64,000 nt of DNA from an uncultured delta proteobacterium (GTDB taxonomy: Bacteria; Myxococcota; Myxococcia; Myxococcales; Myxococcaceae), in the NCBI GenBank assembly GCA_963731795.1, contig CAVSWU010000003.1, positions 1,158,216-1,222,215 of the forward strand. The letters run 5' to 3'. Positions 840 to 53,186 of the stretch are shown in pieces. Below the pieces are notes generated by a model. The model searched no databases, was not told the DNA's origin, and saw nothing but the letters and a program-made list of their open reading frames with translations. Position numbers and translations under genes: made by a program. Position 1 is the first letter of the stretch; the number at the start of each line of letters is the position of its first letter.

Positions 840-1848
840 TCAACCGCCGAGCGTCTCCCGGAAGAAGCGCCGGAAGTTGCCCCCGAGAATCCGCTCCACG
901 AGCGGCTCCGGGAGACGGCGCAGCAGCACCTCGGTGAGGCGGGGCAGGTCCGTCACATCGCGGAAGCCCTTGGGCAGCGCCACCATCCCGTCATAGTCCG
1001 AGCCAATCCCCACTCCCTCCTCGCCCATGATCTTCAAGGCGTGCTCAATGTGCCGGGCTACATCATCCAGAGTGTCTCCTCCCAGGTAGATGGGAGCCAG
1101 GATGATGCCGACCACGCCTCCCCGGTCAGCAATGCGGCGCAGCGACTCATCCGAGAGGTTGCGCCACCCTCCCCCGGCGCCGCGCACGCCCGTGTGCGAG
1201 CAGAAGAAGCGAACCGAGGGAGCGGCGAAGAGCTCTTCCAGCGTGCGCTCGGAGGCGTGCGCCACATCCACGCTCAGGCCCACGCGAGCCATCTCCTCCA
1301 CCACCGCATGTCCCAGGGGCGTGAGGCCGCAGTTGCCCATCATCGGAAAGGAAGAGCCCCCCAGCTCGTTGTTGGAGAGGTGGGTGAGGCCCATGAAGCG
1401 CACGCCGCGCTGGTGCAGCTCCGCGAGCCGCTCCACTCGCCCTTCGATGGCATGTCCCCCCTCCACGCCGAGAACGGCGGACAGCCGCCCCTGCGCGAGG
1501 TTCTCCTCCAGCATGGCGGCGGTGGTGGTGATGCGCACCTGGTCCTCGGAGCGGCTGCAGAACTCCGAGAGCCTGTCGATCTGCCACAGCGCCCGGCGCC
1601 ACTCGCTCGAACGCGCCTCGCGAGGCCAGCCATGCCAGGCCGCGAACACCGGGAAGCCGCCAATGAAGGGGAAGCCCGCGGGTGACGAGGGTGAAGCACT
1701 GCAGCTTCATCCCCGCCTCACGCAGCCGGGGGAAGTCCACATGCCCTTGGCTGGAGCGGACACAGAGGTCGCGGTTCCACATGAGCGAGTCCGCATGGCC
1801 GTCCGCGATGCACCAGCGCCGGTGGAGTTCGTTCACGTCGCTCATGTC
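840..1848 (-). CDS. membrane dipeptidase (peptidase M19 family); frameshift around 1650-1690
   Basis: N-terminal ...CIADGHADSLMWNRDL...HVDFPRLREAG in ORF 1147..1914(-) frame, remainder (LGVEGGHAIEG...GIGSDYDG...) in ORF 840..1649(-) frame; classic renal-dipeptidase motifs. Confidence 0.7.
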
Positions 1849-2086
1849 CGGCAGTCTCGGATCTCGTGCGGCAGAGGACAAGCCGACTTCGCCGCGCCGG
1901 CCTTCCACCCACACCCGCGCTCAGAGACGCCGAAGGGCGCGCCCCCACCATGAGAGCGCGCCCCACCCGTTGCCTCAGGGCCGAGGCTTGCGCGGGCTCA
2001 TCCCAGGAGGCGCGCTGGGAGGATCCTCTTCCGGAATCTCGGCACCACTGCCGCGCCGGTCGGCCTCGCCGCGAATCAGGGAGATC

Positions 2087-3676: not shown

Positions 3677-4241
3677 TCATTTCCCTCCGTCCGTGCCTCC
3701 GTCCAGCCCGCCATCTGCGGTGCCGCCATCCGCGGTACCGCCATCCGTGTTGCAGAAGGGAGCCCCACCCTCTGCCCACTGCCCGATGATCGCTCGCTCC
3801 TCTGCGGTGGGCGCGGGGTTGCCCACGGGGGGCATGTCCTTGAACTTCGCTGCGCGCACATCGATGCGGGGAGCCATCTCCATGGCGCCCTTGATGCCTG
3901 CATCGGACTCGTACATGTCCAGCCGGAACTCGGGATGGCCGCTGCCGGTGTGCACGGCCCCGTGGCAGCTCTGGAGGCAGTAGTTGGCGAGCAGGGGCTG
4001 GACGTCCGCGCACCAGGTGGGCACGGGCCCAGGCGCGGGACCGCCCGCATCCACGACATCCGGCAGCGCCAGCACCTCACAGGTCCGCCCTGCGCCAGGG
4101 CGCGCCGCCACGCACACGTACGGGTCCGGGCAGTCCGCCACGACTCTCGCAGTTCTTCCCGGCGAAGTCGCTCACCGAGACGACGCAGCCCACGACGGTC
4201 ACGACAGCGGCGACGCCCACACTGACGAAAGCTCTTTTCAT
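3677..4241 (-). CDS. PSCyt1-like (planctomycete cytochrome c-like) domain lipoprotein, paralog 1; frameshift near 4145
   Basis: Signal/lipobox MKRAFVSVGVAAVVTVVGC in ORF 4077..4268(-); domain ...WCADVQPLLANYCLQSCHG...GSGHPEFRLD...MPPVGNPAPTAEERAIIGQWAEGGAPF in ORF 3677..4141(-); aligns residue-by-residue with paralog 2. Confidence 0.6.
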
Positions 4242-4264
4242 GGCTGGCTCGGTTGCTCCCCTCA

Positions 4265-4787
4265 TCAAGGAGTGCCCCCATCATCACAGAAAGGTGCCCC
4301 GGCCACCGCCCACCGCCCCAACACCGCACGCTCGGCATCAGTCGGGGCCGGGTTGCCCGTAGGCGGCATGGTCCGCAGATCGAAGGCGCGGACCTTGATG
4401 CGAGGGGCCATGTCCTTGGCGCCCTTGGGCCCCCCTCCGTCAGGCGGCTCGTAGTAGTCCAGCCGGAAATCGGTGTGGCCACTGCCCGTATTCACTTCCC
4501 CATGGCAACTGGAGACGCAGTTGGCGGCGAGGATGGGCTGCACATCCCGACAGTACGTGGGCGCCACGCCCGGCATCCGCGCCCCCATCGGTGCCACCGG
4601 CCGAGGACGGCGGATAGATGATCTCGCAGAAGCGCTGGTACTCTGGCCCACCGCAGACATAGTCCTCGGGGCAGTCCGCGTCAGCCGAGCATGCACGGCC
4701 CGCGACCTGGTCCTGGGAGATGATGCAACCCGCGGCCGTCAGCACGGCCGCAAGCGCAAGAAAACCACCTGTCAGCCTTGCGTCCAC
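4265..4787 (-). CDS. PSCyt1-like domain lipoprotein, paralog 2; frameshift near 4570-4590
   Basis: Lipobox MDARLTGGFLALAAVLTAAGC in ORF 4440..4787(-); domain ...YCRDVQPILAANCVSSCHG...GSGHTDFRLD...MPPTGNPAPTDAERAVLGRWAVAGAPF in ORF 4265..4696(-). Confidence 0.6.
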
Positions 4788-10154: not shown

Positions 10155-10161
10155 GCCCTCG

Positions 10162-11364: not shown

Positions 11365-11410
11365 GTCTCGTCTCCTGTATGGAAGTCCCGCGAGGTGACG
11401 CGCTCGGGGC

Positions 11411-12469
11411 TCAGGTCGCCATGGCCGGCCGCTGGCGCTCGAGCCGCGGTGCCGACAACTCCGTGTACAGCCCGAGCATCACCGGCCCCGCATCCGGAGA
11501 GGCCGACTCCAAGGGTCCCTCGACGAGAGCCTGCCGCACTCGCAGCGCCAGCGCCGGCGCCTGGCCGGACTGGAACAGGTACGTCCCCTCGGGCCGAGCA
11601 CACACGTCGCTGGCCACGCAGGGCACCCCGAGCGCCAGCGCCTCACGCACGGAGATGGCATCCCCATCGTGCGTCGTCGGGCGGATGAACGCGTCGCACC
11701 TCGACAGGAGGCCGAGCACCTCCTCATGTTCCAGCTCGCCCAGATCCTCCAGGTACGGCGCCACGTGCGTCTCGCGAGCGTCGCGCGCGAACTCCGGAGT
11801 CCTCATCCCAGGCCCGAAGACCGCGAGCCCCACTCCCGGCAGCTCCCTCGCGAGCATCCGCAGCGCGCGGAACATCACCCTCCGCCCATAGACCGGCGAT
11901 GGGTGGTGCGCCATGGCCAGCAGCGGCGCGCGCCGGGCCCTCGCCTGCTCCACCGCGGCAGTCACCGGGCCCGGCTTCACCTGCGAGGCGCAGAACGCCG
12001 GCTGGACGAGGAGCTTCTCCTCGGGCACGCCACACCCGACGAGCGCCGCCTTCACCGCTGGCGACACCGCCACCACGCGCGAGTACCCAGCGAGCGCGGC
12101 CCGGGCCAAGGCCCTGCGAGCCGAGGAGCCCGCCAGGAAGTCCGGCAGCAGCCCCGAGTGCAGGGTGATGATCCGAGGCGATCGAGGCGCCGGAACCCCC
12201 GCCGCCGCGGCCAGCATCCAGGACTTCGGGTTGTTGCCGCTGGTGTGGACGTGCACCGTCCACCCAGCGTTCAAGAATCCCGCGAGCCGCAGGCCGAACT
12301 TCGCGAGGGATGGGACCGGGATGACGTCCGGAGCCGGCCGGCCGCCCTTGCCGATATCCAACACCTTCGCCTCGACACCACGCCCGCGAAGAAACCGGTG
12401 CAGTTGTTGAACATGGATCGCCACCCCACCATGCGGCGGTGGATAGTCGCCAATCAGAAGCACGCGCAT
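11411..12469 (-). CDS. glycosyltransferase family 1 (GT4-type)
   Basis: 352 aa, MRVLLIGDYPPPHGGVAIHV N-terminus typical GT4. Confidence 0.8.
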   Translation of the reverse strand: MRVLLIGDYPPPHGGVAIHVQQLHRFLRGRGVEAKVLDIGKGGRPAPDVIPVPSLAKFGLRLAGFLNAGWTVHVHTSGNNPKSWMLAAAAGVPAPRSPRIITLHSGLLPDFLAGSSARRALARAALAGYSRVVAVSPAVKAALVGCGVPEEKLLVQPAFCASQVKPGPVTAAVEQARARRAPLLAMAHHPSPVYGRRVMFRALRMLARELPGVGLAVFGPGMRTPEFARDARETHVAPYLEDLGELEHEEVLGLLSRCDAFIRPTTHDGDAISVREALALGVPCVASDVCARPEGTYLFQSGQAPALALRVRQALVEGPLESASPDAGPVMLGLYTELSAPRLERQRPAMAT

Positions 12470-12487
12470 GAGGCTCGAACCTCCGAG

Positions 12488-13000
12488 TTACTGGAGCGGG
12501 AGCCCCGTGGAAGCCGCAGGCACCTGTCGCCGAGGCAGCAGCCCCATCTCACGCTGGTACGTGGTGAGGGGATCCGGATCCTTGCGGAGCACCTTGGCGG
12601 GCACTCCCGCGACGATCGTGGCCGTCGGCACATCCTTGAGCACCACCGCGTTCGCGCCGATCACCGCGAAGTCGCCAATGTGGATGTTGCCGAGGATCTT
12701 CGCGCCCGCGCCGATACGGACGTAGTCGCCGATCACTGGCGCACCCTCGAGGCCCGAACGTCCGCCAATGGTCACCTGCTGGGAGACGAGGCAGTGGCGG
12801 CCCATCCGGGTCGCCTTGTGGATCACGACTCCGATGCCGCCGTACCCGAGCTGCGTGCCCTCGCCAATCTCCGCCTCGAAGGGGATGTACGAGTTGTGCA
12901 GATAGTAGATGGCCTTGCGCAGCACCGTCGGTAGCAATGGGACTCCGCGCAGGTACAGCCTGTGCGCGAGCCGATACAGCATCATCGCATCCACACCCAT
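12488..13000 (-). CDS. hexapeptide-repeat acetyltransferase (serine O-acetyltransferase/WcaB-like)
   Basis: Left-handed beta-helix repeats …IGDYVRIGAGAKILGNIHIGDFAVIGANAVV…; internal start MGVDAMMLYRL. Confidence 0.75.
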   Translation of the reverse strand: MGVDAMMLYRLAHRLYLRGVPLLPTVLRKAIYYLHNSYIPFEAEIGEGTQLGYGGIGVVIHKATRMGRHCLVSQQVTIGGRSGLEGAPVIGDYVRIGAGAKILGNIHIGDFAVIGANAVVLKDVPTATIVAGVPAKVLRKDPDPLTTYQREMGLLPRRQVPAASTGLPLQ

Positions 13001-13096
13001 CGCCGCCCTCCTCCCAACCCAGCTTGTGGACCACAAGCAAGCTAGGTACCCACCCCTGAGGAGGGAAGTCCTCCCCAAGTGTCCGATTCAGCGCGA

Positions 13097-14640
13097 TCAC
13101 CCCGTCCCGCGGGACCGCATTCCCGCCAACACTCGCAGCGGCCGGATGCCCGTGGCGTACAGCACCGCGACGTATCCGATGATGAACAGCAACCCCGCGA
13201 CCGCCAGCGGCAGCACCCGCCAGAAGAAGCCCTCGGGCAGCCTCACCCATGCGCTCTCCGTGCCTGCTCGCAGCGCGAAGATGCCAACCGCCGCCGCGAC
13301 CGCCGCCAGGGCCGCCTTGCCCAGCTCCACCCACGGGATGACATCCCGGACTCGCAGCGGCCGCTCCGGCGTGGACAGCGCGGCGGGCACTCGCACCAGC
13401 AGCGTCGCCTTGCCCACCATCTCCGCGATCCCCCACGAGGCGATGCCGCCCTTCATCCCGAACCGGTGCACGCCCCACCACACGAGCGGCACCGTCACCA
13501 CCGCCTTGATGAGGTACGAGATGAAGATGGAGCGGGTGTGCCCTCGGGCGCGCAGCACGCCATCCATCGGCAGAATGGACAGCACCACGCCCAGCACGCT
13601 CACCCGGAAGATGGGCACCGCGGGCAGGAACTTCGCGCCGAAGAGCGCGGCGATGAACTCGGGCGCCGCGGCGAAGAGGAACGCCGCGAAGGGCAGGAAC
13701 ACGAAGGCGAGCTTCCCCGCCGCCTCGCGGAAGGCCACCACCCCCTCCTCGAGCCGGCCCGCCTTCTCCAGCTCGCCCAGGCGCACCATCAGCACCTCGC
13801 TGGTGGGCGTGTAGAGGAGATCCACCACCGGGAGCTGGAAGCAGCCCACCCGATAGAGCGCGTACAGCGCCGGAGCCACCGCGCTGCGCCACCACGATAG
13901 AGGTGCGCGTTCTGCTGCGGAATCGAGAGCGCCATGGCCGCGCCGAACGGAGCCGCGTACACGAGCTGCTCGCGCAGCAGCGGCCCATTCACCAGCGGCC
14001 CGGTCGAGCCCCGCGCAGCGCGATCACCCAGGCCGCCAGGTAGCGCAGGCCGCGCGAAGCCGGCCACCGCCACCATCATCCCGTGCAGCGAGGCGCCCAG
14101 CAGGCACGGCACCACCATGACCAGCCGCGCGCACGGCGTCCGACACCAGGTACACCACGGCCGACTGCCGCGTGCGCCCCTGGCTGGTGAGGGACATCTC
14201 CAGCGGGAACGCAGCCGATCAGCAGCGCCGGTGTAGACCGCCAGCGGCAGCCGGTAGTGCAGCAGCGCGGGGTTGGAGAACCAGCCCGGCCACCGGCCCC
14301 AGCAGCACGGCACACCAGCGCCGCGGCCACCACGCCCGCCGCCGGTCATGAAGAGCAGCGCCTGGCCCAGGTAGGGCCGCTTCTGCTCCGCGCGCGGCAG
14401 GAAGTAGTAGAGGCTCTGCACCACGCCGAACGGCAGGACGTAGTAGAGCGTCGTGGCGATGAGGAAGAGCTGGTAGTACGTCCCGTACTCCTCGAGGCGC
14501 GAGCACCCGCGCGAGCACGAGCGGGATGGACAGCGTCAGCCCGGCGGTGAAGAGCCGGGCCAGCACCAGGGGGCCGGCCTTGCCCAGGAAGCTCCCGGAC
14601 GCGGCCGGCGCCGGGGATGCGCTCACGTGGCTTCTCCTCT
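13097..14640 (-). pseudogene. Wzx-like polysaccharide flippase (MOP superfamily), at least 3 frame disruptions
   Basis: C-terminal half intact in ORF 13097..13879(-); N-terminal pieces (…GKAGPLVLARLFTAGLTLSIPLVLARVL…, …VQSLYYFLPRAEQKRPYLGQALLFM…) lie in ORFs 14219..14683(-) and 13789..14424(-) in different frames. Confidence 0.6.
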
Positions 14641-15863
14641 CCGACGAGGCTCGCCTCCGATGCGCAGACCGCTGGGCGGCCACCGGCGCGCGACACGTGC
14701 GGGCGCTTGCCCAGCACCGGGTGGCTCACGCCCAGCACGCCGAAGCAGTCGTCGAGCTGGCACGCCGGTGAGCGTCGTCGAGTAGTCCCCCAGCATGCCG
14801 ATGCTGAAGTTCTCCCACAGCACCTTGCGCTTGAGGGTGAACGGATCCCCGCCGATCCGGTTGGGCAGGTCCTCCGTGGTCACCGCCGAGCGGAACCCGT
14901 GGGCCGCCAGCACGCGGATGACCTCGTCCGAGTACCAGCCGTTGCAGTAGGCGAAGTCCACGCACCGGGCTTGCTCCAGCTCGCGCTCGATGGCGCGCTT
15001 GGACTCGACGGATCTCGCGCTCCACCACCTCGGGCGGCTCCAGCGTCAGCACGGTGTGGCCCAGCGTGTGCGCGCCGAACTCGAAGCCGTCCCGAGCCAT
15101 GCGGCGCACCTCGTCCCAGTCCATGATGTCGCCCTGCTCGGGCATGAGGTCCGCGGCCGCCGCCCAGCTGCTGCTCCAGCGCGTCGATGACCTCCGCGAG
15201 CGACGCGGCCGGGTGCTCGCCGATGAAGTCGTCCAGCGCGCGCCGAGGCCGTCTTCTGCCCGGAGAGGATGGGCTCGAGCAGCTCAGTCGCCGGCGCCGG
15301 CAGCGCGCGCGAAGTAGGGCCGGAACCGCCGCTCCTTCGCATGCCGCACCAGGTGGAAGAGCCGATCGTGGTTGAAGCGCCGGTCCGTGCCGATGAAGGC
15401 CGTGGGCAGGTAGATGATGGCGGGCACGCCCATCCGCTTCAGGACGGGGTAGGCGTACCGGTACACGTCCCGGTAGCCGTCATCGAAGGTGACGACGCAC
15501 AGATCCTGCTTCGCCGCCCTGCGCGCCCGCCATCACGTCCACCGCGTCGCCGATGGAGGCGAACTCGTAGCCCGCCGCGGCGGCCTCCTCCAGGTGCCGC
15601 CGGAACGTCTCCTGGGAGATGAGCAGCCCGGGAATGGAGCGCTGCAGCTCGCCTGTGAAGTCCTCCACCACGCGGTGGTAGCTGACGATGAGGATCCGCC
15701 GCCCACCGGACTGGCCTCGGCGGTACGCCGCCAGCGCCTTGCGCAGCCCGCTGTAGTGCAGCAGTCCCGCCGCCGCCACCTTCACCGCCCGTCCGCACCA
15801 ACCGACCCGCCCCCATGACCTTCCCCATGCGCAGAGAAACTCTCGCCGGGTCGATAAATGCAC
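14623..15863 (-). pseudogene. polysaccharide deacetylase (NodB-homology, CE4), at least 3 frame disruptions
   Basis: Fragments LIVSYHRV… (15480..15863), YRYAYPVLKRMGVPAIIYLPT (15284..15466), …FEFGAHTLGHTVL… (14726..15145), C-term MDFAYCNGWYSDEV… (14623..14961) each in a different frame. Confidence 0.6.
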
Positions 15864-16121
15864 GGGCGGTGCCAGCCCGGGCCAGCGACTACCGCACAGT
15901 GGGGACGTTCCCGAGGCAGAGCCTGTGCCACCCCTGAAACAAACGGGCCCCTCCGTAGAAAAACTTTCCCGATCCGGGTCCCGTCATGCAGGAAACGCCG
16001 CAGCGTGCCTGGGAAGGCGTGTCGCCCTGCTGCCCAGACCGCCGCCAGGCAGGGGAGCGTCCCTGTCAAGCCCGCTTTCACTGGAGAAAGGCGCGATTTC
16101 CAGTTACGAACGCACCCCTCG

Positions 16122-16784
16122 ATGGAAGCCCCCGCCACCGCGCCTCCCGCGATCGCCCTGCACGACGTGAGCAAGCGCTACGGGCGTCACTGGGCCCTGG
16201 CGCGCCTCACCTACTCGCTGCCTCCAGGGCGCTCGCTGCTCCTCACGGGCCACAACGGCTCCGGGAAGACGACGCTGCTGCGGCTGGTGGCCACCGCGCT
16301 GTCCCCCACCGCCGGCCGAGTGGAAGTCCTCGGGCGCAACACCGTCACCGACCGTGACGCCGTGCGTCAGGACGTGGCCCTCCTGTCCCACGCCAGCTTC
16401 CTCTATGAGGATCTCACGGCCCACCAGAACCTCACGGTGCTGGCGCGGCTGCTGGGCCTGCCCTCTGCGGCGGAGACCGCCAGCGAGCTGCTGACCCGGG
16501 TGGGCCTCACGCGGCGCACCGACAGCCCCGTGCGCCAGTTCAGCGCCGGCATGCGCAAGCGCCTGGCCATCGCGCGGCTGCTGATGAAGAAGCCCGCCCT
16601 GGCGCTGCTCGACGAGCCCTTCGGCGAGCTGGATCCGGCCGGCATCGAGGCCATGGAGATCATCATCCGCGAGCTGAAGACCCGGGGCGTCACGGTGGTC
16701 CTCGCCACCCACCTCGTCGAGCAGGGTCTGTCTCTGTGCGAGGAGCGCCTTCACCTCCAGGAAGGCCGAGCGGTGCCCGCATGA
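16122..16784 (+). CDS. ccmA: heme exporter ATP-binding protein CcmA
   Basis: MEAPATAPPAIALHDVSKRYGRHWAL…GHNGSGKTTLLR; ATG at 16122 inside longer ORF; stop overlaps ccmB start (ATGA). Confidence 0.8.
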   Translation: MEAPATAPPAIALHDVSKRYGRHWALARLTYSLPPGRSLLLTGHNGSGKTTLLRLVATALSPTAGRVEVLGRNTVTDRDAVRQDVALLSHASFLYEDLTAHQNLTVLARLLGLPSAAETASELLTRVGLTRRTDSPVRQFSAGMRKRLAIARLLMKKPALALLDEPFGELDPAGIEAMEIIIRELKTRGVTVVLATHLVEQGLSLCEERLHLQEGRAVPA

Positions 16785-17477
16785 CTCGCCCCCGTCCCAT
16801 TGGCCTGTTGCGCTCTACGCTCGTCCTGCTGGGCAAGGATCTGCTCATCGAGTGGCGCACGCGCGCCCGCCTCAACGCGCTGATCTTCTTCGCGCTCTCC
16901 ACGCTGCTGCTGTTCTCGTTCGCGCTGGGGCCGGACACCAAGCTGCTCGAGCGCAACGCGGGCGGCTACCTGTGGCTGGCCATCCTCTTCGCCAGCACCC
17001 TGTCCCTGGGCGAGTCCTTCCGCGTGGAGCACGAGAACGCCTGCCTGGACGGCCTGCGGCTGGCCCCGGCGGACGCGCGCGCCATCTTCCTGTCCAAGGC
17101 GGTGGGCAACACGCTGCTGCTGGTGGTGCTCGGCGGCCTGCTCATCCCGGTCATGGTGGCGCTCTACGGGGTGAAGGTGATGCTCGGGCGTGGGAGAGCT
17201 GGCGACCACGCTGGTGCTCGGGTGCATGGCGCTTGCCGCCCCAGGGACCGTGTATGCGGCCATCGCCAGCAACGCCCGCGCGCGGGACGTGCTGCTGCCT
17301 CTGCTATTGTTCCCGCTGATCGTTCCCGCCCTGCTGGCCGCGGCCAAGGCGATGATGCTCGTGCTTCAGGGTGACCCGATGAATCAGCTCGGCTCATGGT
17401 TCGGTCTGCTTGGCGGATTCAACCTGATCTATTGGGGCCTGGGGTTCGTGCTGTTCCCGCGGGTGATCGAGGACTAA
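16781..17477 (+). CDS. ccmB: heme exporter permease CcmB; frameshift near 17195
   Basis: N-part in ORF 16736..17374, C-part ([24 protein letters not shown]…[12 protein letters not shown]) in ORF 17190..17477. Confidence 0.7.
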
Positions 17478-17478
17478 C

Positions 17479-18254
17479 ATGAGCGCGCTGTCTCTGTTCA
17501 CCATCTGGCTGCCCCTCATCGTCCTGGTGCTACTGCCCACCGTGGGCCGTAAGTATGCGCACGTGACGCTGCCGGTGTACGCGCTGCTCCTGGTGGGCAT
17601 CGGCCACTACTGGGGCCTGGCCGTGGCGCCTCCGGATCGCGAGATGGGCGACGTGCAGCGCATCATGTACGTGCACGTGCCCGGCGGTGTGGATCGCGCT
17701 GATCGCGCTCACGCTCAACTTCGCGCTGCTCGGTGACATACCTCTTCAAGCCGAGCTGGAAGACGGACTCGCTGGCGGAGGCCTCCGCCGAGGTGGGGCT
17801 GCTGTTCGGCACCGTGGGCGTGATGCTGGGCTCCATCTGGGGCCGGCCCACCTGGGGCGTGTACTGGACGTGGGATCCGCGGCTCACCACGGCGGCCATC
17901 ATGCTGGTGGCCTACACGGGCTACATGGCGCTGCGCCGCTTCGTGGAGGATCCCGAGAAGCGCGCGGTGTGGAGCTCCGTGGTGGGCATCATCGCCGCGG
18001 TGGATCTGCCCATCATCTGGTTCTCGGTGAAGTGGTGGCGCAGCCTGCACCAGGAGCAGTCCTCGCCCAGCACCATGGACCCGGCCTTCTATCTGCCGCT
18101 GCGCCTGAGCGCCTACGGCCTGCTGGCCTTCGTGATCTACTTCCTCATGCGGCGCTACCGGATCGCCCTGGCCGAGCGCAACGCCGAGGTGGCCCTGCCC
18201 GAGGCGCTGCCCACCGACAGCGCTCCGGCCAACCGGTCCGCGGGGGTGGCGTGA
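17479..18254 (+). CDS. ccmC: heme exporter protein CcmC; two frame disruptions (~17690, ~17745)
   Basis: …[10 protein letters not shown] / [17 protein letters not shown] / …[28 protein letters not shown]… spread over three frames. Confidence 0.7.
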
Positions 18255-18442
18255 TGAGCTCGATGATGAGTCTGATGGTGCTGGCCCAGGCGGCCGCGGA
18301 CCCGGGTGTCCGCCGGGGGATCCAAGGCGGCTGGGGCTATGTGTGGACCAGCTACGGAATTACCTGGGGCGCGCTCGCGCTCTACTCGCTGTCGCTGTGG
18401 TTGCGGCGGCCCAAGAACTCGCCTGTTGGCCCGAAGGAGTGA
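18254..18442 (+). CDS. ccmD: heme exporter protein CcmD
   Basis: 62 aa [12 protein letters not shown]…WGYVWTSYGITWGALALY… single TM; TGATG overlap with ccmC. Confidence 0.6.
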   Translation: MSSMMSLMVLAQAAADPGVRRGIQGGWGYVWTSYGITWGALALYSLSLWLRRPKNSPVGPKE

Positions 18443-18445
18443 TCC

Positions 18446-18933
18446 ATGACGCCTGTCGTACGTAACCGCCTCATCGCCGTGGCAGCCCTCCTGGTGGCCG
18501 GTGCGGGCCTGGCCTTCGTGGCCTTCGGCAACATCGGCAACAACCTGGTCTACTACTGGAGCCCGGCGGAGATGATCAGCCAGGGCGAGAAGGCCTATGG
18601 CCCCACCATCCGCCTGGGCGGCGTGGTGAAGCCCGGCTCCATCCAGTGGAACGCCGAGCACACCAGCCTGAACTTCCAGGTCGCCACCGATCACAAGCCG
18701 GACGCGGTGGCCGTGACGGTGCACTCCACCGAGGTGCCGCCGGCCGATGTTCCGTGAGGGCATCGGCGTGGTGGTGGAGGGCACCTTCGACAAGTCCCAG
18801 GTGTTCAGCTCCAACCGGCTGATGGTGAACCACTCCAACGAGTACCGCGCGCCCAAGCCGGGCGAGAAGCCGCGCGAGTGGAAGGAGAGCCTCACCGACA
18901 GCTCCGCCACGCGCGACGACGAGGCCTCAGTGA
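18446..18933 (+). CDS. ccmE: heme chaperone CcmE; frameshift ~18750 and a second near the 3' end
   Basis: N-term TM + …VTVHSTEVP then MFREGIGVVVEGTF…LMVNHSNEYRAPKP (heme-binding His/Tyr region); no in-frame stop before ccmF, but GTGA overlap motif at 18930-18933. Confidence 0.65.
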
Positions 18934-20956
18934 ACGCGACGATTGGATATGGGCTCGTGCTCGGCGGGCTGGTGTGCGCCGCGTTCGGGGCCGTGATTGG
19001 CTTGACGAGCGGCCTGCGCCAGAGCGAGGCGGGCTCTCAGTGGGTGCGGCGCGCGGTGTGGGGCTTCTTCCTCTGCATGGCGGGCTCCAACCTGACCATG
19101 GTGTACGCGCTGGTCACCCACGACTTCAGCCTCGCGTACGTGGCCCAGGTGGGCAGCCGCGCCACGCCGCTGCTCTTCACAGATCGTGTCCCTGTGGAGC
19201 GCGCTGGAGGGGTCCATCCTCTTCTGGGGCCTCATCATGGGCACCTACCTGCTGGCCTTCTCGCTGGTGCACCGCAACGAGCACCGGCGCTACATGTCGC
19301 TGGCGCTGGGCACCATGCTGGGCGTGGGCGTCTTCTTCGCCTTCCTGATCGCCGGCCCGGCCAACCCCTGGCACGTGCTGGCGCAGGTGCCGCCGGACGG
19401 CCCGGGGCCCAACCCGCTGCTGCAGAACCACATCCTCATGGTCATCCACCCGCCCATGCTCTACCTGGGCTACGTGGGCATGACGGTGCCCTTCGGCATC
19501 GCGGTGGCGGGCCTGCTGCGCGGGGAGCTTGGCGACGCGTGGATGGCGCCGCTGCGGCGCTGGATCGCTCATCCCGTGGACGTTCCTCTCGGTGGGCATC
19601 ATCCTCGGCGCGTGGTGGGCGTACGCGGTGCTGGGCTGGGGCGGCTACTGGGCGTGGGATCCGGTGGAGAACGCCTCGTTCCTGCCGTGGCTGACGGCCA
19701 CCGCCTTCATGCACTCCACCCTGGTGCAGGAGCGCAAGCAGATGCTCAGGCTGTGGACCATGAGCCTGGCGCTGGCCAGCTTCGTGCTGACGATCCTCGG
19801 CACGTTCATGACGCGCTCGGGCATCTTCAACTCGGTGCACTCCTTCACCCAGTCGGACATCGGGCCCACGTTCCTGGTGTTCATCGCCTTCCTGCTGGTG
19901 TTCTCCATCGTGCTGCTGGCCACGCGCGGGCACCTGCTGGTGGCCAAGGGCCAGATCAACTCGTTCATCTCGCGTGAGACGAGCATCCTGGTGAACAACC
20001 TGGTGTTCGTGGCCATCACCTTCACGGTGCTGCTGGGCACGGTGTACCCGCTCGTCTCCGAGGCGGTGCGCGACGTGCGCGTCAGCGTGGGCGAGCCGTA
20101 CTTCAACAAGATGGCCGTGCCGGGCGGCATCGCCGTGCTCTTCCTCATGGGCGTGGGGCCGATGCTGCCGTGGGGCACGCCGAACAAGGACGCGCTGCGG
20201 CGGCAGTTCCTCTTCCCCGCCGCCGTGGGCCTGGTGGTGGCGGCGATCTGCTACGCGGTGGGGCTGCGCGGCTTCTACCCGCTGCTCACCTTCGGGATCG
20301 CCGGCTTCGTCACCATCGTCACCCTGCGCGAGCTGGCGGCGCCGATCCGCGTGCGCATGAGCGAGCGCAAGGAGAGCCTCGGCACGGCGCTCGTCCAGAG
20401 CGTGTCCAAGGCCCGCCGGCGCTTCGGCGGCTACGTGGTGCACCTGGGCATCATCTTCATCATCGTGGCGGTGGCGGCCTCGCACGCGTACGTGAAGCAC
20501 ACCTCCGGCACGATGAAGGTTGGCGAGGCGATCAAGCTGGACGGCTACACGCTCAAGTACCTGGGCCCGGCCGAGGGCAAGGAGCCCCACCGCACCTACG
20601 TGGCGGCGCGCATGGAGGTGACGACGCCTGGCGGCAAGGTGCAGGAGTTCCAGCCGCGGCTGAACTACTACGAGCGCAGCACGGACCCCGTCGGCACGCC
20701 CGCGGTGCGCGAGTCGCCGCAGGAAGATCTCTACATGTCGCTGATGGCCTTCTCCGAGCGGGGGACCACGGCGAGCCTCAACGTGTGGGTTTTCCCGCTG
20801 GTGGGGTGGATCTGGTACAGCATCCCCATCCTGGTGCTGGGCGCGCTGATCTCGCTGTGGCCGACGCGGCGGCGCGTGGCGGTGGGCGCGAGCGCTCCGG
20901 CCACGAGCGGTGCCCCGCCGGTGGCGGACAGTGACATGAACCGGGGTGCGGCATGA
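18930..20956 (+). CDS. ccmF: cytochrome c-type biogenesis protein CcmF; frame disruptions ~19190 and ~19565
   Basis: Three frame segments with CcmF signatures (…SLWSALEGSILFWGLIMG…, …GGYWAWDPVENASFLPWL…), ~670 aa total. Confidence 0.75.
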
Positions 20957-21609
20957 CGGGGGAAAACCTGGGCGCGCTCGCCTTCGTTGCAGTGCTGCTC
21001 CTCTCCCTGCTGACGGGCTTCTGGCGGAATCCGCGCGTGAAGCGGTGGAGAACCATTCTGAGAGTCCCACTGCTCGCGGTTGCCGTCTCCGCGGCGCTGC
21101 TCATCGTGATGCTGAAGGGCTTCGGGCGGGATCCGCACGAGGTGCCCTTCATGTTGGCCGGCAAGCCAGCCCCGCCCTTCACCTTGCGCGCGCTGAACAG
21201 CGGCAAGCCGGTGAGCCTGGAGCAGTTCAAGGGCCGCCCGGTGGTCATCAACTTCTGGGCTTCATGGTGCGGCCCCTGCCGGCAGGAGCACCCGGTGCTC
21301 GACTGGGGCGCGCGGGAGCTCGGCAATCAGGCGGTGTTCCTGGGCATCATCTTCGAGGACACCGAGGACAACGCGCGGGAGGTCCTCCAGGAGGAGGGCG
21401 CCAGCTTCCCGCAGCTGGTGGATCCGCGCTCGCGCATCTCGGTGGACTACGGCGTGTCGGGCGTGCCGGAGACGTACTTCATCGACGCCAACGGCATCAT
21501 CATGGGCAAGCACGTGGGCCCCATCGATCCGCAGACGCTGTCCACCCGCATCAAGGAGCTGAATGCCCGGACGGCCTCCACCGCGACAGGCTCGGCCCAG
21601 AACCCTTGA
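20953..21609 (+). CDS. ccmG: thiol:disulfide interchange protein CcmG/DsbE
   Basis: TM anchor, thioredoxin fold with WASWCGPCRQE active site; ATGA overlap with ccmF. Confidence 0.85.
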   Translation: MTGENLGALAFVAVLLLSLLTGFWRNPRVKRWRTILRVPLLAVAVSAALLIVMLKGFGRDPHEVPFMLAGKPAPPFTLRALNSGKPVSLEQFKGRPVVINFWASWCGPCRQEHPVLDWGARELGNQAVFLGIIFEDTEDNAREVLQEEGASFPQLVDPRSRISVDYGVSGVPETYFIDANGIIMGKHVGPIDPQTLSTRIKELNARTASTATGSAQNP

Positions 21610-21660: not shown

Positions 21661-22831
21661 ATGCACCAGTGCACTGAGTGTGGCACGGTCGCCGCGGAGC
21701 CCCGCCTGAAGTACTGCGAGGAGTGCGGGGCGCGGATGCCCGAGTACAAGCCGCCTCCCCTGCCCCCCGAGGGCGGCCCGGGTGGAGCGGCGCTCGCGGA
21801 CTCCCGCCGCGCCACGCCCGCCTATACCGGCCCGAAGTGGCTGGCGCATGTCCCCGCGCACTCGCCCACCTCGCTGGGCGTCATCCTGCACGTGCTGGCC
21901 CTGTGGCTCTCCATCCTCCCCTTCCTCGCGGGCGTGGGGCCGTTCTGGTCCTTCGTGATGACGGTGGGCGGGGTGCTCATGATCGCCCGGGAGTACCGCA
22001 CCTCGAACCTGCCGAACCCGCTGGTGGACTGGATCCCCGAGTCGCTCCTGCCGAGCTTCCTGCCCGTCGTGTACTCGGCGCTGGCCGTGGCGATCGTGCT
22101 GCCGATGGTGGAGTTCAGCATCCAGCCGCTGCTGTGGGCGGGCGGCACGGTGCTGGTGGTGCGCGACCAGTGGGGCAAGGCCTTCACGGGCCCGGGTGGC
22201 TACGCGGAGATCTTCGATCCTCGCGCGGTGGTGCGCGGCCAGCGGCTGCTGGCGTTCGCGGGCATCGTCGTGTGCGTGCTGGCGCTCTTCTTCACGTGGA
22301 CGCTCGAGGGTGAGGTCACCGCCAGCGGGTACGCCTCGGCTGCCTCGGGGCAGCTGCGCTCCATCAACGTGCCGCAGCCGGGCGGCGACTCGATCTACGG
22401 CGGCGCGGGGGGGCTCCGGGTGTCAGGGTTCGAGCTGCCCGTGGGCTCCACCGTGGAGATCGGGCTGCTGGCGATCCTGATGCTGCTGATGCTGAAGCCC
22501 GAGGTGGAGCGCCCCGTGTGGCTGCGCTTCGTGCCCGCCGGGATCACGGTGATCTCCCTGGCCTGGGTGCTGGTGAACATGCGCATGAAGGTGGGGCCGA
22601 TCCTGTTCCTGGCGGGGCTCATCCCCGTGGGGCTCGTCTCGGTCCTCCAGGCGCTCGGCCGCGATGAGCATGCCCCCGGAGGACTACGCCCACGAGCCGC
22701 CTCCCGACGAGTCCTTCGCCCAGGACGCCGACCTGCCTCCGGAGGAGGACTTCCCGACCGAGAACGACCCGTTGCCGCCCGACGAGGCAGAGCATCCGCC
22801 TTCCGAGGATGATGAGGACATGCGCGGCTGA
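21661..22831 (+). CDS. zinc-ribbon polytopic membrane protein with acidic C-terminal tail (hypothetical); frameshift ~22665
   Basis: N-term CTECG…CEECG zinc ribbon, 6+ hydrophobic helices; last ~50 aa read in +1 frame give DYAHEPPPDESFAQDADLPPEEDFPTENDPLPPDEAEHPPSEDDEDMRG with much better GC3 than the annotated frame. Confidence 0.6.
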
Positions 22832-25710: not shown

Positions 25711-26889
25711 TCAGCTCGCGCGCTTGCGTGAGCGGCGATCCATCTTCACGGCCTCGCGGACCGCGGCGGCCACCTTCGCCATCACCTCGGGGCTGAGATC
25801 CTGGTGGCAGGGGATCTCCACGATGGAGCGCCGCAGCTCCGCCACCTCGGGGAACTCCGCCGGATCGCATGCCGGGTGGAAGCGCCTCCAGAAGTCGATG
25901 GCGTCGATGCCGTGCTCGTGCAGCTTCGCCATCACCTCCGCCTTGTCCTGCACCACCAGCGGATAGAAGAGCGGGCACACGCCCGGCGGGAGCTGGTTGA
26001 ACAGCGGCGTTGACACATCGCGCAGCCGCCCAAGCAGGAAGAAGTAGTTCCGCCGCCGCTTCTCGACGATGCCCTCCAGATCCTGCGCCAGGGCGATGCG
26101 CTTCGTCAGCGGGCTCATGCCCAGGTCCACGTGCTCCCGGTTGAAGTGCTGCGTGCCGGTGGCCACGCGCTCGATGTTGGCGGCCTTCACCGTGCCATGG
26201 CCCAGCTCGCGGATGAGGCGGCGCAGCCCTCGGCCCATGACTCCGCCTCGGAGCTCCAGGTTCTGCAGCAGCGCGGAGATCGTGTGGCTGATCGTGGAGG
26301 CCTTCGGCGGCGCGGGCGGCTCCGGCAGGCTGTACTGCCGGGGGCCGTTGATGGCCAGCGCGCCCCCGTTGGGCACCGGCAGCGTCTTGTAGAGACAGAA
26401 GATGCCCACGTCACCCGTGGTCCCCAGCGGCACCGTACCGTCCGCGGACAGCAGCGACAGCGCGCAGTCCTCGATGAGCGGCAGCCCGTGGCGGTCCGCG
26501 ATCTGGCGCATCTCCGCCGCCGGGCCCGGGAAGCCCGCGTAGTGGATGAGGTAGAGGGCCTTGGTCTTCGGGCCGATCTTCTTCTCGACGTCCTCCAGGT
26601 CGACGTCCCAGCGCGAGCCCACCCGGTAGAAGCGCGGCGTGGCGCCCGCATCCACCACGGCCTCCACCTCCACGCCGTGGTGATAGGCCGGCATGAGCAC
26701 CTCGCCCTTGTCCAGCCCCAGCATCTTCACCGTGAGCCAGACGGCATTCCGAGCGAAGTAGAAGTAGCGCACGTTCGGCGCGCAGAACGGCGGGAAGGCG
26801 GCCGGCTGGGGCCGACGCCACAGCATGCTCGGCCAGAGCGTGGGCAGGGAGGGAACGAACAGCTTCTGGGTCGGGCTCACTTCTTCCAT
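25711..26889 (-). CDS. DegT/DnrJ/EryC1/StrS-family PLP-dependent sugar aminotransferase (ExoH-like)
   Basis: 392 aa from MEEVSPTQ…; …ALYLIHYAGFPGPAAEMRQIADRHGLPLIEDCA…IFCLYKTLP…; start overlaps upstream stop by 13 nt. Confidence 0.75.
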   Translation of the reverse strand: MEEVSPTQKLFVPSLPTLWPSMLWRRPQPAAFPPFCAPNVRYFYFARNAVWLTVKMLGLDKGEVLMPAYHHGVEVEAVVDAGATPRFYRVGSRWDVDLEDVEKKIGPKTKALYLIHYAGFPGPAAEMRQIADRHGLPLIEDCALSLLSADGTVPLGTTGDVGIFCLYKTLPVPNGGALAINGPRQYSLPEPPAPPKASTISHTISALLQNLELRGGVMGRGLRRLIRELGHGTVKAANIERVATGTQHFNREHVDLGMSPLTKRIALAQDLEGIVEKRRRNYFFLLGRLRDVSTPLFNQLPPGVCPLFYPLVVQDKAEVMAKLHEHGIDAIDFWRRFHPACDPAEFPEVAELRRSIVEIPCHQDLSPEVMAKVAAAVREAVKMDRRSRKRAS

Positions 26890-27997
26890 CGCGCCACCAC
26901 CTGTCTTGCCGTGGGGACCCACCGGAACTTCGCCGCGCCCAGCGCGCGCGCGAAGGCGGAGTCGTTGAAGAGGAAGAGCCAGTGGTGGCGCCGGACCTTG
27001 TCCGTCCAGTCGCGCTTCCACACCATGTCCGGCCCCAGGAAGTCGAACTCGCGCAGGCCGCGCGAGATGCAGTCCCCCAGCACCTCTTCCATCAGGAGCT
27101 GGCCCGGGCTGCACTCCTTGAGGCTCTCGTCGTAGCCGGGCTTGAGCAGGAAGTAGCGCTCGCCGTAGGTGAGGCCGTACTGGAAGGCCACCGGCGCGCC
27201 CATCCAGGCGCAGGTAGTAGAGCGACAGCCGCCCCGAGTACGCCGCCTCCCGCGCCAGCTCCGTGTAGAAGCCGCGCGTGCTCGCGTCCTGCGCCATCGC
27301 CGTGCCGCGCTCGCCCTTCCAGCCGCTCTGCTCGAGCGCGAAGCCCTCCTCCAGCTTGCCCTCCAGGTCCAGGCCGCCGTCCACCCGCTCGAACTCGACC
27401 TTGCCCTTCTCTTCCAGCTTCTTGCGCCGCCGCCGGCAGTTGGCCTTGAACTTGGACTGCAGCGTGGCCTGGTAGGCCTCGAGCGTGGCGGGCAGCGGCA
27501 CGTAGGGCGACTGGAGCGAGTCCCAGACTCCCGTGGACAGCCCCGCGCTCCTGGCCTCCTCGAGCAGGCTCCAGCCCGCGCCGCCCTCCGGCACGTCCGT
27601 CAGCCGCAGCACATCCCAGTCCCGGCTCATGCGCAGCCAGGCGAGGAACATCGCCGCGGCCGCCTCCGGCTCGCGGGCGATCAGATCGAACCGGCACGAG
27701 TGCGGATTGGCCGTGGCCGAGAGCTGCCGCACGGGGAGGCCGTACATCGTCGTGCGATCGGCCATCAGCGGCAGCGCCGCCGCCAAGCCGCCCCTCGGCG
27801 TCCCGCAGGGTGAGCACCCGCAGCCGCGCCGAGGGCGCGAAGTTGTCGATCCAGATGCGCAGGAACTCGTGGCGATAGAAGAGCTCGTTGGAGGTGGCCT
27901 CCACGAGCGCATTCCACTCGGGCTCGAGCGCCATGAACGCGGCCCGGTCCGTGACCTCCTGGACACTCGGCGCGGGCGTGATCTTTCTGGCTTCCAT
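26877..27997 (-). CDS. GNAT-fold CelD/FemAB-like acyltransferase (ExoG-like); two frame disruptions (~27760, ~27200)
   Basis: N-term MEARKITPAPSVQEVTDRAAFMALEPEWNALV… (ORF 27092..28048), middle in ORF 25711..28026 frame, C-term …FDFLGPDMVWKRDWTDK… in ORF 26877..27203. Confidence 0.65.
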
Positions 27998-29147: not shown

Positions 29148-29181
29148 TGCCCAACCCCTTCCCGCCCACTCGCTGTGCCCG

Positions 29182-39401: not shown

Positions 39402-39408
39402 GCGGCGG

Positions 39409-47234: not shown

Positions 47235-48870
<1,636 letters not shown>

Positions 48871-48886: not shown

Positions 48887-49883
48887 CTACGAAGAAAGTG
48901 TCACCGAGATCTGCTCCGGGCCACTCCCTTCATCTCTCACCCCGACAGCCGGCCCCTGCCGGCCGCTCACGGATGCACCTCGCGCCCGGCGCATCTGTTG
49001 AATCGCCCCGCTCAGCAGCTGCGTGGGTGCCCCCACCATGTCCGGGAAGCTCACCGCCCCCAGGCTCAGCGACGCTCGCAACTCCTTGCCCTCCACCTGT
49101 AAGCGCGCCAGCTCGACGCGCGCGGCGATCCGCGCCAGCACCCCTGGCAGCGCCTCCGCCGTCGTGCCTGGCAGCAGCAGCGCGAACTCATCCTCGGACA
49201 CCCGCGCCACCACGTCCGACTCGCGCACCGTCTGCCCCAGCACCACCGCTGTGTAGACGAGCAGCCGCTCCGCCAGCGCCATCCCGTACCGTTTGCGGAA
49301 CGCCCTCAGGTTCTGAGGCGAGCAGGCCGCCACGGAGAAGCCGCCGCCGTAGCGCTCCGCGCGCCGCGCCTCCAGGCCGATCTGCACCAGCAAGAACGCG
49401 CGGTTGTAGAGGCCGGTGAGCGGATCATTCAGCACCAGCCCCGTGCCCGCTTCCTCGGCGGCGCGCAGCACCGCGTCCCTCAGCCGGAGCTGCGCGTGCA
49501 GCTTGAGCGCCAGCACCGCCCCCATCCCCGAGCGCGGGACAATGTCCACGCCCTGCCCCTTCTCCACGCAGTAGCGCCAGGCCTCCGGATCATTCGGATC
49601 CACCAGGTAGAACAGCGGGACGGTGCCGCCGCCGAGCTGCCGCAGCCGGCGCACCGTCGCCACCGCCGTGAAGTCCGGCGCCTGCGCGGCCAGCACCACG
49701 GCATCCGGCCGGATCACCTCGAACAAGGGCGCCGCCGCATCGAACCGTGTGAGGGGCACCACCCGGAACCCCGCCTCCATCAGCAAGGCCCGTGTCGGAC
49801 TCCAGGTCCTCCGCCCGCGGCTCCACGAGGAGCACGGTCGGCTGTCCCCCAGCCTTACCGCCGTGCTTGCGCTTCAGCGCCAC
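48887..49883 (-). CDS. response regulator with GGDEF (diguanylate cyclase-like) output domain; frameshift ~49790
   Basis: GGDEF domain …RYGGGFSV… (GGGF variant) in ORF 48887..49786; receiver start [22 protein letters not shown] in ORF 49590..49883. Confidence 0.65.
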
Positions 49884-50014
49884 CGCTCCAACCTCCTACC
49901 CCCACCCAGAACTTTCTTACCCACCACGCCCCTCGCCATCGCACCCAGAATTACAGCCCTGCTCGCCGAGCGGCCCTATCCATCCCCTTGAACTTCCAGG
50001 GGAAGGACACCGCG

Positions 50015-51484: not shown

Positions 51485-53186
51485 TCACGGCGGCGCGGCC
51501 TGCCCGGCGGGCGCCGTCATCTCCACCGTGCCCTCCTCCGACTCGTCCTCCTCCTGGCCCTCGGGCTTCGCGAGGGCTGGCGGGGTGACTGCGGGCTGAG
51601 CGGAGGGGGTGGTCGCCTTCCCCGCAACGGCCGGCTCGACGATGGACGGAGTCGACTTCCCTGCCACGGCAGGCTCAGCCACCACTGGAGTCGCCTTGCC
51701 CGCCGCGGGTTGGACAGACATCGTGGCTGCCTTCTCGGCAACGGCCGATTCGGCGGAAGTCGGGACCGACTTGCCCGCCACGACTGCCTCGGAAGAGACC
51801 GGTGCGGCCTTCTCCGCCACGGCAGGCTCCGCAGAAACCGGGGCCGCCTTCTCCGCCACGGCGGGCTCGGCGGCAGCCGGAGCTGACTTCGCGGCCACGG
51901 CCTGCGGCGGCGGCGCCGGGAGCCGCTCCAGCGCCAGACGCATCGCCTCGCGCCCGAGCCAGGTGCCGCGAATGCGCCACAGCGGATCATTCACGACGAT
52001 CGGCCGCCACGGCCACGCGCGGGTGATCCTTGGGCGCGAAGCCCACGAACCACGAGTAGTCGTGGAACGGGCTCTTGTCCGCCAGCGTGCCCGTCTTTCC
52101 CACCGCGCCCGGAACCCGGAAGGCTCGCTCGCGGAAGATGCGCCGCGCGGTGCCGTTCTTCACCGTCTGCTCCATCATGTCCGCGAGCGCACGCTGCACC
52201 TCGGGAGGCAGCACCTGCTCGCCTTCAGGAGGAGGCGCACCAGACGCGGGCTCGAAGAGGACAGGATCGCGCCACACGCCCGTGGCCGAGGCCGCCGCCA
52301 GCGCCGCGCCGTGCAGCGGAGACAGGTACACGTCCCCGAAGCCCGCCCCGGCCTCGGCCAGCCCGAACTCATCGTCCGGAATCGAGGCGAGCGACACATC
52401 CGTGGGGATGGGGAACGAGATGGGCCGGTTGAAGCGCAGCCGCGCCGCCATGCGCCGCAGCGCGTCCGCGGCGAGGTACTTCTTGGTCATCTTCGCGAAG
52501 ATGACGTTGGCGCTCTTGCCCAGCGCGGCGGCCAGCGAGTAGCACGCCCCGTCGCGCTCACTGTCCTCCAGGAGCCGCTCGTCGATCCGCCGCTTGCCGC
52601 CGTGGAAACAGGCCTCCTCGTCCGGGGACACACCGGCCTCCAGCAGCGCGCTGCCGGTGACGATCTTGAAGATGCTGGCCGCGGGGAACACCGCGCGTGT
52701 CGTGAGCCCACGCAGATCCGGCTGGGCCTGCGAGTGCTCCGCCAGCGCCAGCACCCGGCCCGTGGAGGGCTCGATCACCACCGCCGCGCCATAGGGGACC
52801 TGGTAGTCCTGCATGATGCGGGTGAGCTCCTCCTGCAGCGTCGGATCAATCGTGAGCGTCGCCTCGCCCTCGGGGCCCGGCACCACGAGCCGCCCATCCC
52901 GGCGGAGCTTCGCGTGGGAGAGCAGATCCTCCTTGCGAGTCAACGTGCGCACGCGCGTGAGCGGAGGCGCGTCCTTGCGCGAGGGCACCGGCATGGGCGG
53001 CACCAACCCCACCTCCGCCACGCCCGCATCGGGCACCTCCACTCCGGCGTCCGAAGTACCGGCATCCGGCACGACAGCCTCGGAGGCGGCAGAGGCCTCG
53101 GGAGCACCCGTAGCAGTCCCCATCGCCCCGAGCACCAGGGCGAGAGGTAGAATCAGCGCGGCGAGAAGGTGGCGAGAGTCCAGCAT
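51485..53186 (-). CDS. penicillin-binding protein transpeptidase with C-terminal Ala/Pro/Lys-rich tandem-repeat tail; frameshift ~51990
   Basis: Signal peptide, SIFK (SxxK), SAN, KTGT motifs in ORF 51987..53186; …FVGFAPKDHPRVAVA then NDPLWRIRGTWLGREAM… continues in ORF 51485..51994. Confidence 0.7.
51575..51910. repeat. ~10 tandem copies of a 33-nt repeat encoding AEPAVA(E/G)K(A/S)xPV
   Basis: Direct reading: gccttctccgccacggc(a/g)ggctc(c/g)gc…ccgg units repeated head-to-tail. Confidence 0.7.

Follow-up and report, generated by a model that had tools for sequence, protein, structure and literature searches.

The frame breaks that interrupt conserved genes in the window (the whole 64,000-nt stretch of DNA analysed here) are best read as spurious bases added to the deposited consensus sequence rather than as mutations in the organism. 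Judging from sequence comparison, we give this reading a probability of about 0.87. At 37 of the 38 gene-level breaks, the window has additional nucleotides that all reference loci (L001, L002 and L081–L086) lack. These additions are mainly 1 nt and in a few cases 2 nt long, and the single exception, at position 47616 in the NtrC-like gene, is possibly a 1-nt deletion. The Wzx-like flippase, the polysaccharide deacetylase, ccmB, ccmC, ccmE, ccmF, relA and the other broken genes would almost certainly be intact and functional in the cell, and the breaks are no evidence for a loss of cytochrome c maturation genes.

Number, direction and clustering of the breaks

We counted breaks by frameshift-aware dynamic-programming alignment of proteins to DNA, using the nearest orthologues, those of the Hyalangium sp. 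MAG (L081). Reference loci L001 and L002 (~77–80% nucleotide identity) gave only approximate indel positions, and the Hyalangium loci L081–L086 were used instead. Plain tblastn of reference ORFs was dropped as noisy, since off-frame ORFs cross-match in DNA of 70% GC. A codon-usage HMM overlooked closely spaced shifts and called 4-nt gene overlaps shifts, and it was kept for reference-less regions only.

With orthologues taken from four Hyalangium genomes, the alignment places 25 breaks within 13886–19567, distributed over the Wzx-like flippase (11), the deacetylase (7), ccmB (1) and ccmC, ccmE and ccmF (2 each; Table 1). The initial annotation had reported at least 14 frame switches in 13000–21000. 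These are real and were undercounted: its ccm counts match ours exactly, and those for Wzx and the deacetylase were too low. At least 13 further breaks lie elsewhere in the window, where alignment or a split profile match bears out the broken genes that it had listed (dipeptidase, lipoproteins, Zn-ribbon, GNAT, NtrC-like, GGDEF, PBP, DsbA and relA). The two small lipoproteins have no Pfam match, so that their earlier label "PSCyt1" is without profile support.

Table 1. Genes and insertion sites in the window (identities refer to corrected protein sequences)
Feature	Position	Strand	Breaks and remarks
Membrane dipeptidase (Peptidase_M19)	840..1914	-	Two frames, split near 1650–1690; Peptidase_M19 profile positions 2–55 in one frame, 60–319 in the other; offset of one extra base by frame arithmetic from ORF coordinates
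Two paralogous CxxCH lipoprotein genes	3734..4787	-	One extra base each: 4139, 4571
Wzx-like polysaccharide flippase (Polysacc_synt_3, Pfam label carried over from the orthologue)	13103..14626	-	11 breaks, all extra nucleotides: 14497, 14343, 14312, 14281, 14229, 14213, 14125, 14052, 14014–14015 (2 nt), 13896, 13886; 90.5% identity over 504/505 residues of the L081 orthologue, zero stops
Polysaccharide deacetylase (Polysacc_deac_1)	14626..15734	-	7 breaks by protein and DNA alignment: 15524, 15307, 15240, 15155, 15010, 14763, 14641–14642 (2 nt); 83.3% identity over all 365 residues
Window-specific non-coding single-base insertions	15791, 15851 (15791..15851)	.	Upstream of deacetylase start
ccmA (ABC ATPase)	16122..16781	+	Intact; 93.2% identity over 220/220 residues
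ccmB	16781..17474	+	One extra base, ~17180–17186; 95.7% identity over 231 aa
ccmC	17479..18251	+	Extra bases 17679/17680 and 17725/17726; 92.2% identity over 257 aa
ccmD	18254..18439	+	Intact
ccmE	18446..18930	+	Extra bases 18746, 18912; 89.4% identity over 161 aa
ccmF	18927..20953	+	Extra bases 19179/19180, 19567; break-free from 19568 to gene end; 91.8% identity over 674 aa
ccmG/DsbE-type thioredoxin	20953..21606	+	Intact
Hypothetical 389-aa protein ("Zn-ribbon" of the initial annotation)	21661..22828	+	One extra base, 22669
Acetyltransf_6 (GNAT-type)	26880..27997	-	Two extra bases: 27787, 27195
NtrC-like sigma-54 activator	47238..48870	-	Extra bases 47805, 47792; possible 1-nt deletion 47616, in a linker of species-variable length; 95.4% identity to orthologue
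GGDEF response regulator	48890..49886	-	One extra base, 49796
Penicillin-binding transpeptidase	51488..53186	-	One extra base, 52001
Triple-DsbA-domain protein	55504..57478	+	One extra base, about 55996
RelA/SpoT	58041..60249	-	One extra base, 59010; 97.6% identity over 736 aa

The same break sites emerge from three-way DNA alignments to two pairs of references, giving independent support, and the Wzx sites recur in them as bases extra to the window. The deacetylase additionally carries a +1/+2 pair at 14960/14972 that adds one codon, and two more possible +1 sites (14667 and 14691) lie in its variable C-terminal tail. In a GC3 frame plot, the phase shifts repeatedly over 13.8–19.6 kb. GC3 is 0.85–1.0 on both sides of each change and identity to orthologues after correction is 83–98%, in agreement with the high GC3 and correct homology described by the initial annotation.

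The direction of the events is almost uniform. The coding DNA alignments contain 39 insertions of 1–2 nt and no deletion (binomial p = 4e-12), and the insertion-to-deletion ratio of the gene-level breaks is 37:1; the initial annotation had not noted that almost all events are insertions. Comparison with sister-genome orthologues, which had been proposed as a check, shows that the window's shifts are absent from the orthologues in all eight related loci. When Hyalangium versicolor proteins were aligned to the MAG DNA by the same method, no uncompensated break was found in 11,479 aa. We rejected compensating restoration of the reading frame, since the net shift sums to a multiple of 3 in Wzx alone and not in ccmC, ccmE, ccmF or NtrC. 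The frame is mostly not regained inside a gene, with ccmC, ccmE and ccmF carrying two +1 events each.

The breaks are strongly clustered, with a dispersion index of 6.1 for the counts per kb (chi-square p = 6e-35). The dirty stretches carry one extra base, at times two, per 75–350 bp. The worst patch, at 13.9–15.5 kb, reaches 13.4 breaks per kb (13886–15525) and is followed by 17.2–19.6 kb with 2.9 per kb (17180–19567); the remainder of the window is nearly free. With orthologue references available, we found zero breaks in 8970–13885 and 28080–47791, which upholds most of the clean stretches claimed earlier; for 5.5–8.9 kb, the claim was checked by the codon-usage HMM only. Local GC content was rejected as a cause, being 0.712 at insertion sites and 0.693 in the background, and other stretches are equally GC-rich yet clean. 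Non-coding flanks also carry insertions (63450 and 63550 in addition to the two upstream of the deacetylase), and the insertions thus ignore gene boundaries and are not confined to coding sequence.

State of the broken genes

Once corrected, the broken genes have 83–98% protein identity to their nearest orthologues (from the MAG), as do their intact neighbours, and contain no in-frame stops. At a dS of ~0.17, dN/dS is 0.245 for the shifted genes and 0.238 for the intact neighbours. Neither the drift of dN/dS towards 1 nor the accumulation of stop codons that marks relaxed selection on pseudogenes is seen, and the indel spectrum has neither the deletion bias nor the repeat or homopolymer context of bacterial indels. 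The features of an artefact are largely present: the ORFs around the breaks look functional, relatives are break-free and other genomes compared by the same method have no breaks between them, and the spectrum shows a bias of direction and context and does not depend on gene boundaries. Association with homopolymers is lacking, which rejects the homopolymer subclass of artefact and not the class itself.

The frame breaks are already in the public record, on a contig of 4,253,742 bp. Gene call P0001 on this contig has 454 aa instead of 674 aa and is 100% identical to the ccmF fragment downstream of 19567; P0253 has 491 aa instead of 659 aa and is 100% identical to the DsbA fragment downstream of about 55996. 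The window belongs to a Hyalangium-like myxobacterial genome, and a public contig of 4.25 Mb is of a size typical of long-read assemblies.

Sequence context and origin of the extra bases

Runs of three or more identical bases contain none of the 39 single-base insertions. Only 6 of 39 have an identical neighbouring base, compared with a chance expectation of 53% (p = 1.4e-6), whereas 18 of 39 split a homodinucleotide (XX -> XYX; 16% expected, p = 7e-6). Thirteen of these 18 splits yield CGC or GCG, and CGC or GCG is created by 13 of the 39 insertions, against 8% expected (p = 7e-6). No common slippery motif, homopolymer or simple repeat was found at the insertion sites. The initial annotation had favoured recent indels or homopolymer-type errors over old pseudogenes. 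Sequencing or assembly error remains the best reading, given dN/dS, the absence of stops and the excess of insertions; the homopolymer-type qualification fails, as the count in G/C runs that it had called for came out negative.

The XX -> XYX bias, in particular CC -> CGC and GG -> GCG, suggests a systematic error of base-calling or consensus rather than random noise. Substitutions specific to the window are only modestly raised in 14–16 kb, where their ratio to MAG-specific changes is 1.6 and within the range of other bins, and an excess of substitution errors in the dirty patch is not clearly present. An error process at work here would thus need to generate insertions almost exclusively. 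Its source is probably a long-read assembly, in which consensus building would leave extra bases in some patches, most likely those with low read coverage or those missed by polishing. Indels in long-read assemblies fragment genes, above all in low-coverage metagenome bins (PMC9262707). The sequence context differs from the homopolymer signature usual for nanopore, 454 and Ion Torrent data, and XX -> XYX was matched to no documented platform error profile; this is a counterpoint to an artefact.

A second possible cause within the artefact is a consensus collapsed from the reads of co-existing, diverged strains, with the worst effects in strain-variable polysaccharide genes, and we consider it a tentative minority option. 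Collapse of nearby allelic variants is documented to introduce indel errors (PMC8445201), and the inserted base nearly always differs from its neighbours, as expected of doubled SNP alleles. Within the aligned region, evolution is also fastest in the densest patch (Wzx and deacetylase), at 60–74 window-specific and 38–46 MAG-specific substitutions per kb. However, seven insertions lie in the well-conserved ccmB–F genes and others in the highly conserved relA and NtrC-like genes. Alleles doubled at synonymous sites should also place insertions next to third codon positions, but 28 of 36 do so against 67% expected, which is not significant and leaves strain collapse unsupported as a sub-mechanism.

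Real bacterial gene decay is deletion-biased, and spontaneous indels concentrate in homopolymers and simple repeats. With 37 of 38 breaks being insertions, the opposite of this bias, the breaks are not old pseudogenes. Very recent pseudogenization, in a mutator or long-cultured lineage that really acquired +1 insertions and lost Wzx, the deacetylase, Ccm, RelA and others, is unlikely. The deposited sequence does carry the breaks, and extremely recent mutations would also leave dN/dS unchanged, but neither the insertion excess nor the avoidance of homopolymer runs fits known bacterial indels. Moreover, one 1.5-kb gene has taken 11 breaks yet shows neither a nonsense mutation nor clearly more substitutions, which is unlike a mutator spectrum. 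Selection offers no explanation for the clustering, since a gene is already dead after its first break. In the Ccm system I pathway, cytochrome c maturation involves several steps that are non-redundant. It is biologically implausible that such steps (ccmB, C, E and F) are dead together with relA, PBP and DsbA in an aerobic, developmental myxobacterium, and their joint loss is unlikely to be viable. More improbable still is a local burst of real, non-homopolymeric +1 events (XX -> XYX, mostly CGC/GCG) across a 5.7-kb patch in a natural or cultured Hyalangium lineage, produced by some unknown error-prone synthesis or repair; if true, it would represent a "kataegis-like" insertion cluster with cytochrome c maturation knocked out.

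Programmed recoding (+1 ribosomal frameshifting or transcriptional slippage) or phase-variable contingency loci would account for the shared +1 direction of nearly all shifts, but we regard this as hardly credible. Recoding sites are conserved and slippery, whereas here the orthologues are unshifted and the sites share no motif; up to 11 shifts fall in one gene, the frame is mostly not restored, and non-coding DNA is affected as well. The simple-sequence repeats or long homopolymers of phase-variable loci are likewise not seen.

Consequences and relation to known systems

With the breaks read as a consensus artefact and no real feature, nothing new about myxobacterial biology is learned from them. 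Their importance lies in annotation: taken at face value, they would cause the Ccm system, RelA, PBP, DsbA and polysaccharide-export genes to be mis-scored as pseudogenes or fragments, distorting metabolic reconstruction, pangenome counts and pseudogene statistics. Homopolymer-centred quality control would miss this patchy, almost purely insertional CC -> CGC / GG -> GCG signature, which is of possible use to builders of polishing and assembly-QC tools for high-GC genomes.

Indel errors that fragment genes in long-read assemblies were reportedly described by Watson and Warr in 2019. As in nanopore or PacBio CLR assemblies and low-coverage MAGs (PMC9262707; PMC12007338), single-base indels break conserved ORFs in the window, gene calls (P0001 and P0253) are shortened on a megabase-scale contig, and full-length proteins are restored with the help of close orthologues. 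Unlike the errors of those assemblies, which are usually homopolymer indels and often deletions, the events here are XX -> XYX insertions off homopolymers, and they are patchy rather than evenly spread. Allelic or strain-collapse artefacts (PMC8445201) similarly produce apparent frameshifts, where variants are dense, in genes that are intact per haplotype. That case concerns a diploid eukaryote with phased evidence, whereas heterogeneity here is hypothesised and the codon-position test lends it no support. True bacterial pseudogenes, formed by reductive evolution or in mutators, are likewise frame-disrupted homologs of functional genes; in contrast to these, the window shows no deletion bias, stops or relaxed selection, has several breaks per gene and contains clusters that cross gene boundaries.

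Frame breaks in the window

We located frame breaks, that is, uncompensated reading-frame shifts relative to an orthologue, with a protein-to-DNA aligner written for this task, which permits skips of 1 or 2 nt. The first reference set consisted of Citreicoccus inhibens orthologues and those of a Myxococcaceae genome (loci L001 and L002), and a closer second set was drawn from Hyalangium sp. MAG GCA_045802625.1 (L081/L083), H. versicolor (L082/L084), a JGI metagenome contig (L085) and H. gracile (L086). The frame switches that the initial annotation had noticed between 13 and 21 kb are real features of the sequence, but they were undercounted, as the genes of this region contain 25 breaks between 13886 and 19567. 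In a control with the same aligner, which compared H. versicolor proteins with the MAG DNA, all 11,479 residues were free of uncompensated shifts. In a GC3 frame plot the phase switches repeatedly from 13.8 to 19.6 kb, with GC3 of 0.85–1.0 on either side of each switch, and three-way alignments at the DNA level, made with two independent pairs of references, place window-specific insertions at the same sites.

Frame breaks detected in genes of the window
Gene	Coordinates	Strand	Breaks (number or position)
Two paralogous lipoproteins	3734–4220, 4268–4787	minus	4139, 4571
Wzx-like flippase	13103–14626	minus	11
Polysaccharide deacetylase	14626–15734	minus	7
ccmA	16122–16781		0
ccmB	16781–17474		1
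ccmC	17479–18251		2
ccmD	18254–18439		0
ccmE	18446–18930		2
ccmF	18927–20953		2
ccmG	20953–21606		0
389-aa hypothetical protein			22669
Acetyltransf_6 gene			27195, 27787
NtrC-like activator			47805, 47792, 47616
GGDEF regulator			49796
PBP			52001
DsbA	55733–57438		55996
RelA/SpoT			59010
Dipeptidase			broken; Peptidase_M19 profile divided over two frames

Wherever references existed, no breaks were found in 8970–13885 or 28080–47791, in agreement with the earlier description of these stretches as clean; coverage of 5.5–8.9 kb was by a codon-usage HMM only.

The two lipoproteins are tandem paralogues with 55% identity, and both carry a CxxCH motif and a signal peptide of lipoprotein type. Pfam has no match for either, and the label PSCyt1 used in the initial annotation is therefore without support there. 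The DsbA gene is internally repeated, and its thioredoxin/DsbA modules cross-match at approximately 75% nucleotide identity (blastn self-hits, orthologous loci).

Relatives, public record and gene content

The window has a GC content of approximately 69%, and the nearest relatives of its proteins are found in Hyalangium, a genus of the Myxococcota. For the C-terminal fragment of ccmF, identity is 91% with a Hyalangium sp. MAG protein, 88% with that of H. versicolor and 85% with that of H. gracile. The fragment is also 100% identical with a public 454-aa gene call (P0001) on a contig of 4,253,742 bp, and a second call on that contig (P0253, 491 aa) is 100% identical with the DsbA fragment. The window thus belongs to a deposited assembly whose contigs are of megabase scale and, since both calls are truncated, the frame breaks are already in the public record. 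Given the 4.25-Mb contig, the assembly is probably a long-read one.

Several differences in gene content accompany this comparison. A segment of about 3.3 kb (42008–45296; GC 0.64–0.65 versus ~0.69) is missing at this position from the closest relative, the Hyalangium MAG (L083), and is possibly a lineage-specific insertion. Two ORFs lie on its plus strand, one Ser/Thr-kinase-like, 683 aa long and apparently intact (42122–44173), the other at 43795–45285. Relative to L081 and L082, the N-terminus of ccmG (20950–21075) has a window-specific extension of 84 + 12 nt, giving a 218-aa ORF with an apparent second hydrophobic segment. The deacetylase/ccmA interval of the MAG holds an extra 376-aa hypothetical gene (L081 5974–7104; window ~15975–16060), which is found neither in the window nor in H. 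versicolor. In L085 (2980–4869) and L086 (2524–4422), the glycogen-debranching (GDE) gene has an alpha-amylase-family gene (629–632 aa) upstream of it, for which there is no counterpart at ~35150–35190 of the window.

Direction and context of the insertions

At 37 of the 38 gene-level breaks the window has extra nucleotides, mostly one (two at 14014 and 14641). Only the break at 47616 could be a deletion, and the linker of GAGCCGGAG repeats in which it lies varies in length between species. DNA alignments of coding sequence reveal 39 insertions of 1–2 nt and no deletions (p = 4e-12); the gene-level count is lower because a few of the 39 are codon-neutral or lie at gene ends. The initial annotation had suggested homopolymer-type errors and, as a check, a count of breaks in G/C runs; this count contradicts the suggestion: none of 39 single-base insertions falls inside a run of at least three, and only six have an identical neighbouring base (53% expected at random; p = 1.4e-6). 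A doubled base is split (XX to XYX) at 18/39 sites versus 16% expected, and CGC or GCG is produced at 13/39 versus 8% (p ~7e-6 for each). Most inserted bases are C (16) or G (15); A accounts for 7 and T for 1.

The events are strongly clustered (dispersion index 6.1), with densities per kilobase of 13.4 in 13886–15525, 2.9 in 17180–19567 and ~0.5 in 47.8–59 kb. Neighbouring non-coding DNA also contains insertions (15791, 15851, 63450 and 63550), and the process is therefore blind to gene boundaries.

Origin of the breaks

Once the extra bases are skipped, all broken genes align end to end with their orthologues at 83–98% identity and contain no in-frame stops. Relative to MAG orthologues, dN/dS is 0.245 in 12 broken genes and 0.238 in 14 intact neighbours (dS ~0.17). 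These values bear out the earlier suggestion of errors or very recent events rather than old pseudogenes. Substitutions at 14–16 kb are raised for window-specific and MAG-specific changes alike (ratio 1.6, within the range of other bins).

Bacterial gene decay favours deletions, concentrates in repeats and homopolymers, and goes along with nonsense mutations and a relaxation of selection. None of these hallmarks is seen here. If genuine, the insertions would represent a localised burst of non-homopolymeric +1 events, which we consider very improbable. Selection cannot account for eleven independent insertions within a single gene of 1.5 kb, since the gene is already dead after the first. Moreover, CcmB/C heme export, the CcmE chaperone and the CcmF lyase, which are non-redundant steps of Ccm system I, would be gone together, along with RelA, a PBP and DsbA. 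For a myxobacterium that is aerobic and developmental, this is implausible. Neither programmed frameshifting nor phase variation can explain the breaks, since none of the orthologues has any of the shifts, the sites lack a slippery motif or repeat, and the frame within the gene is mostly unrestored.

The best explanation is that the consensus of the deposited assembly carries insertion errors, which would be limited to patches. Low coverage, unpolished segments and strain collapse are possible causes. Strain collapse would fit the position of the densest patch, where the region diverges most, but very conserved genes are hit too, and the association with third codon positions is not significant (28/36 versus 67% expected). 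Indels can arise when nearby variants collapse into one consensus (PMC8445201), and gene-fragmenting indels are well known from long-read assemblies and low-coverage long-read MAGs (PMC9262707; PMC12007338). On this reading the breaks are a matter of data quality and not a biological feature; problems of this general kind are known, and the error signature here is somewhat unusual among them.
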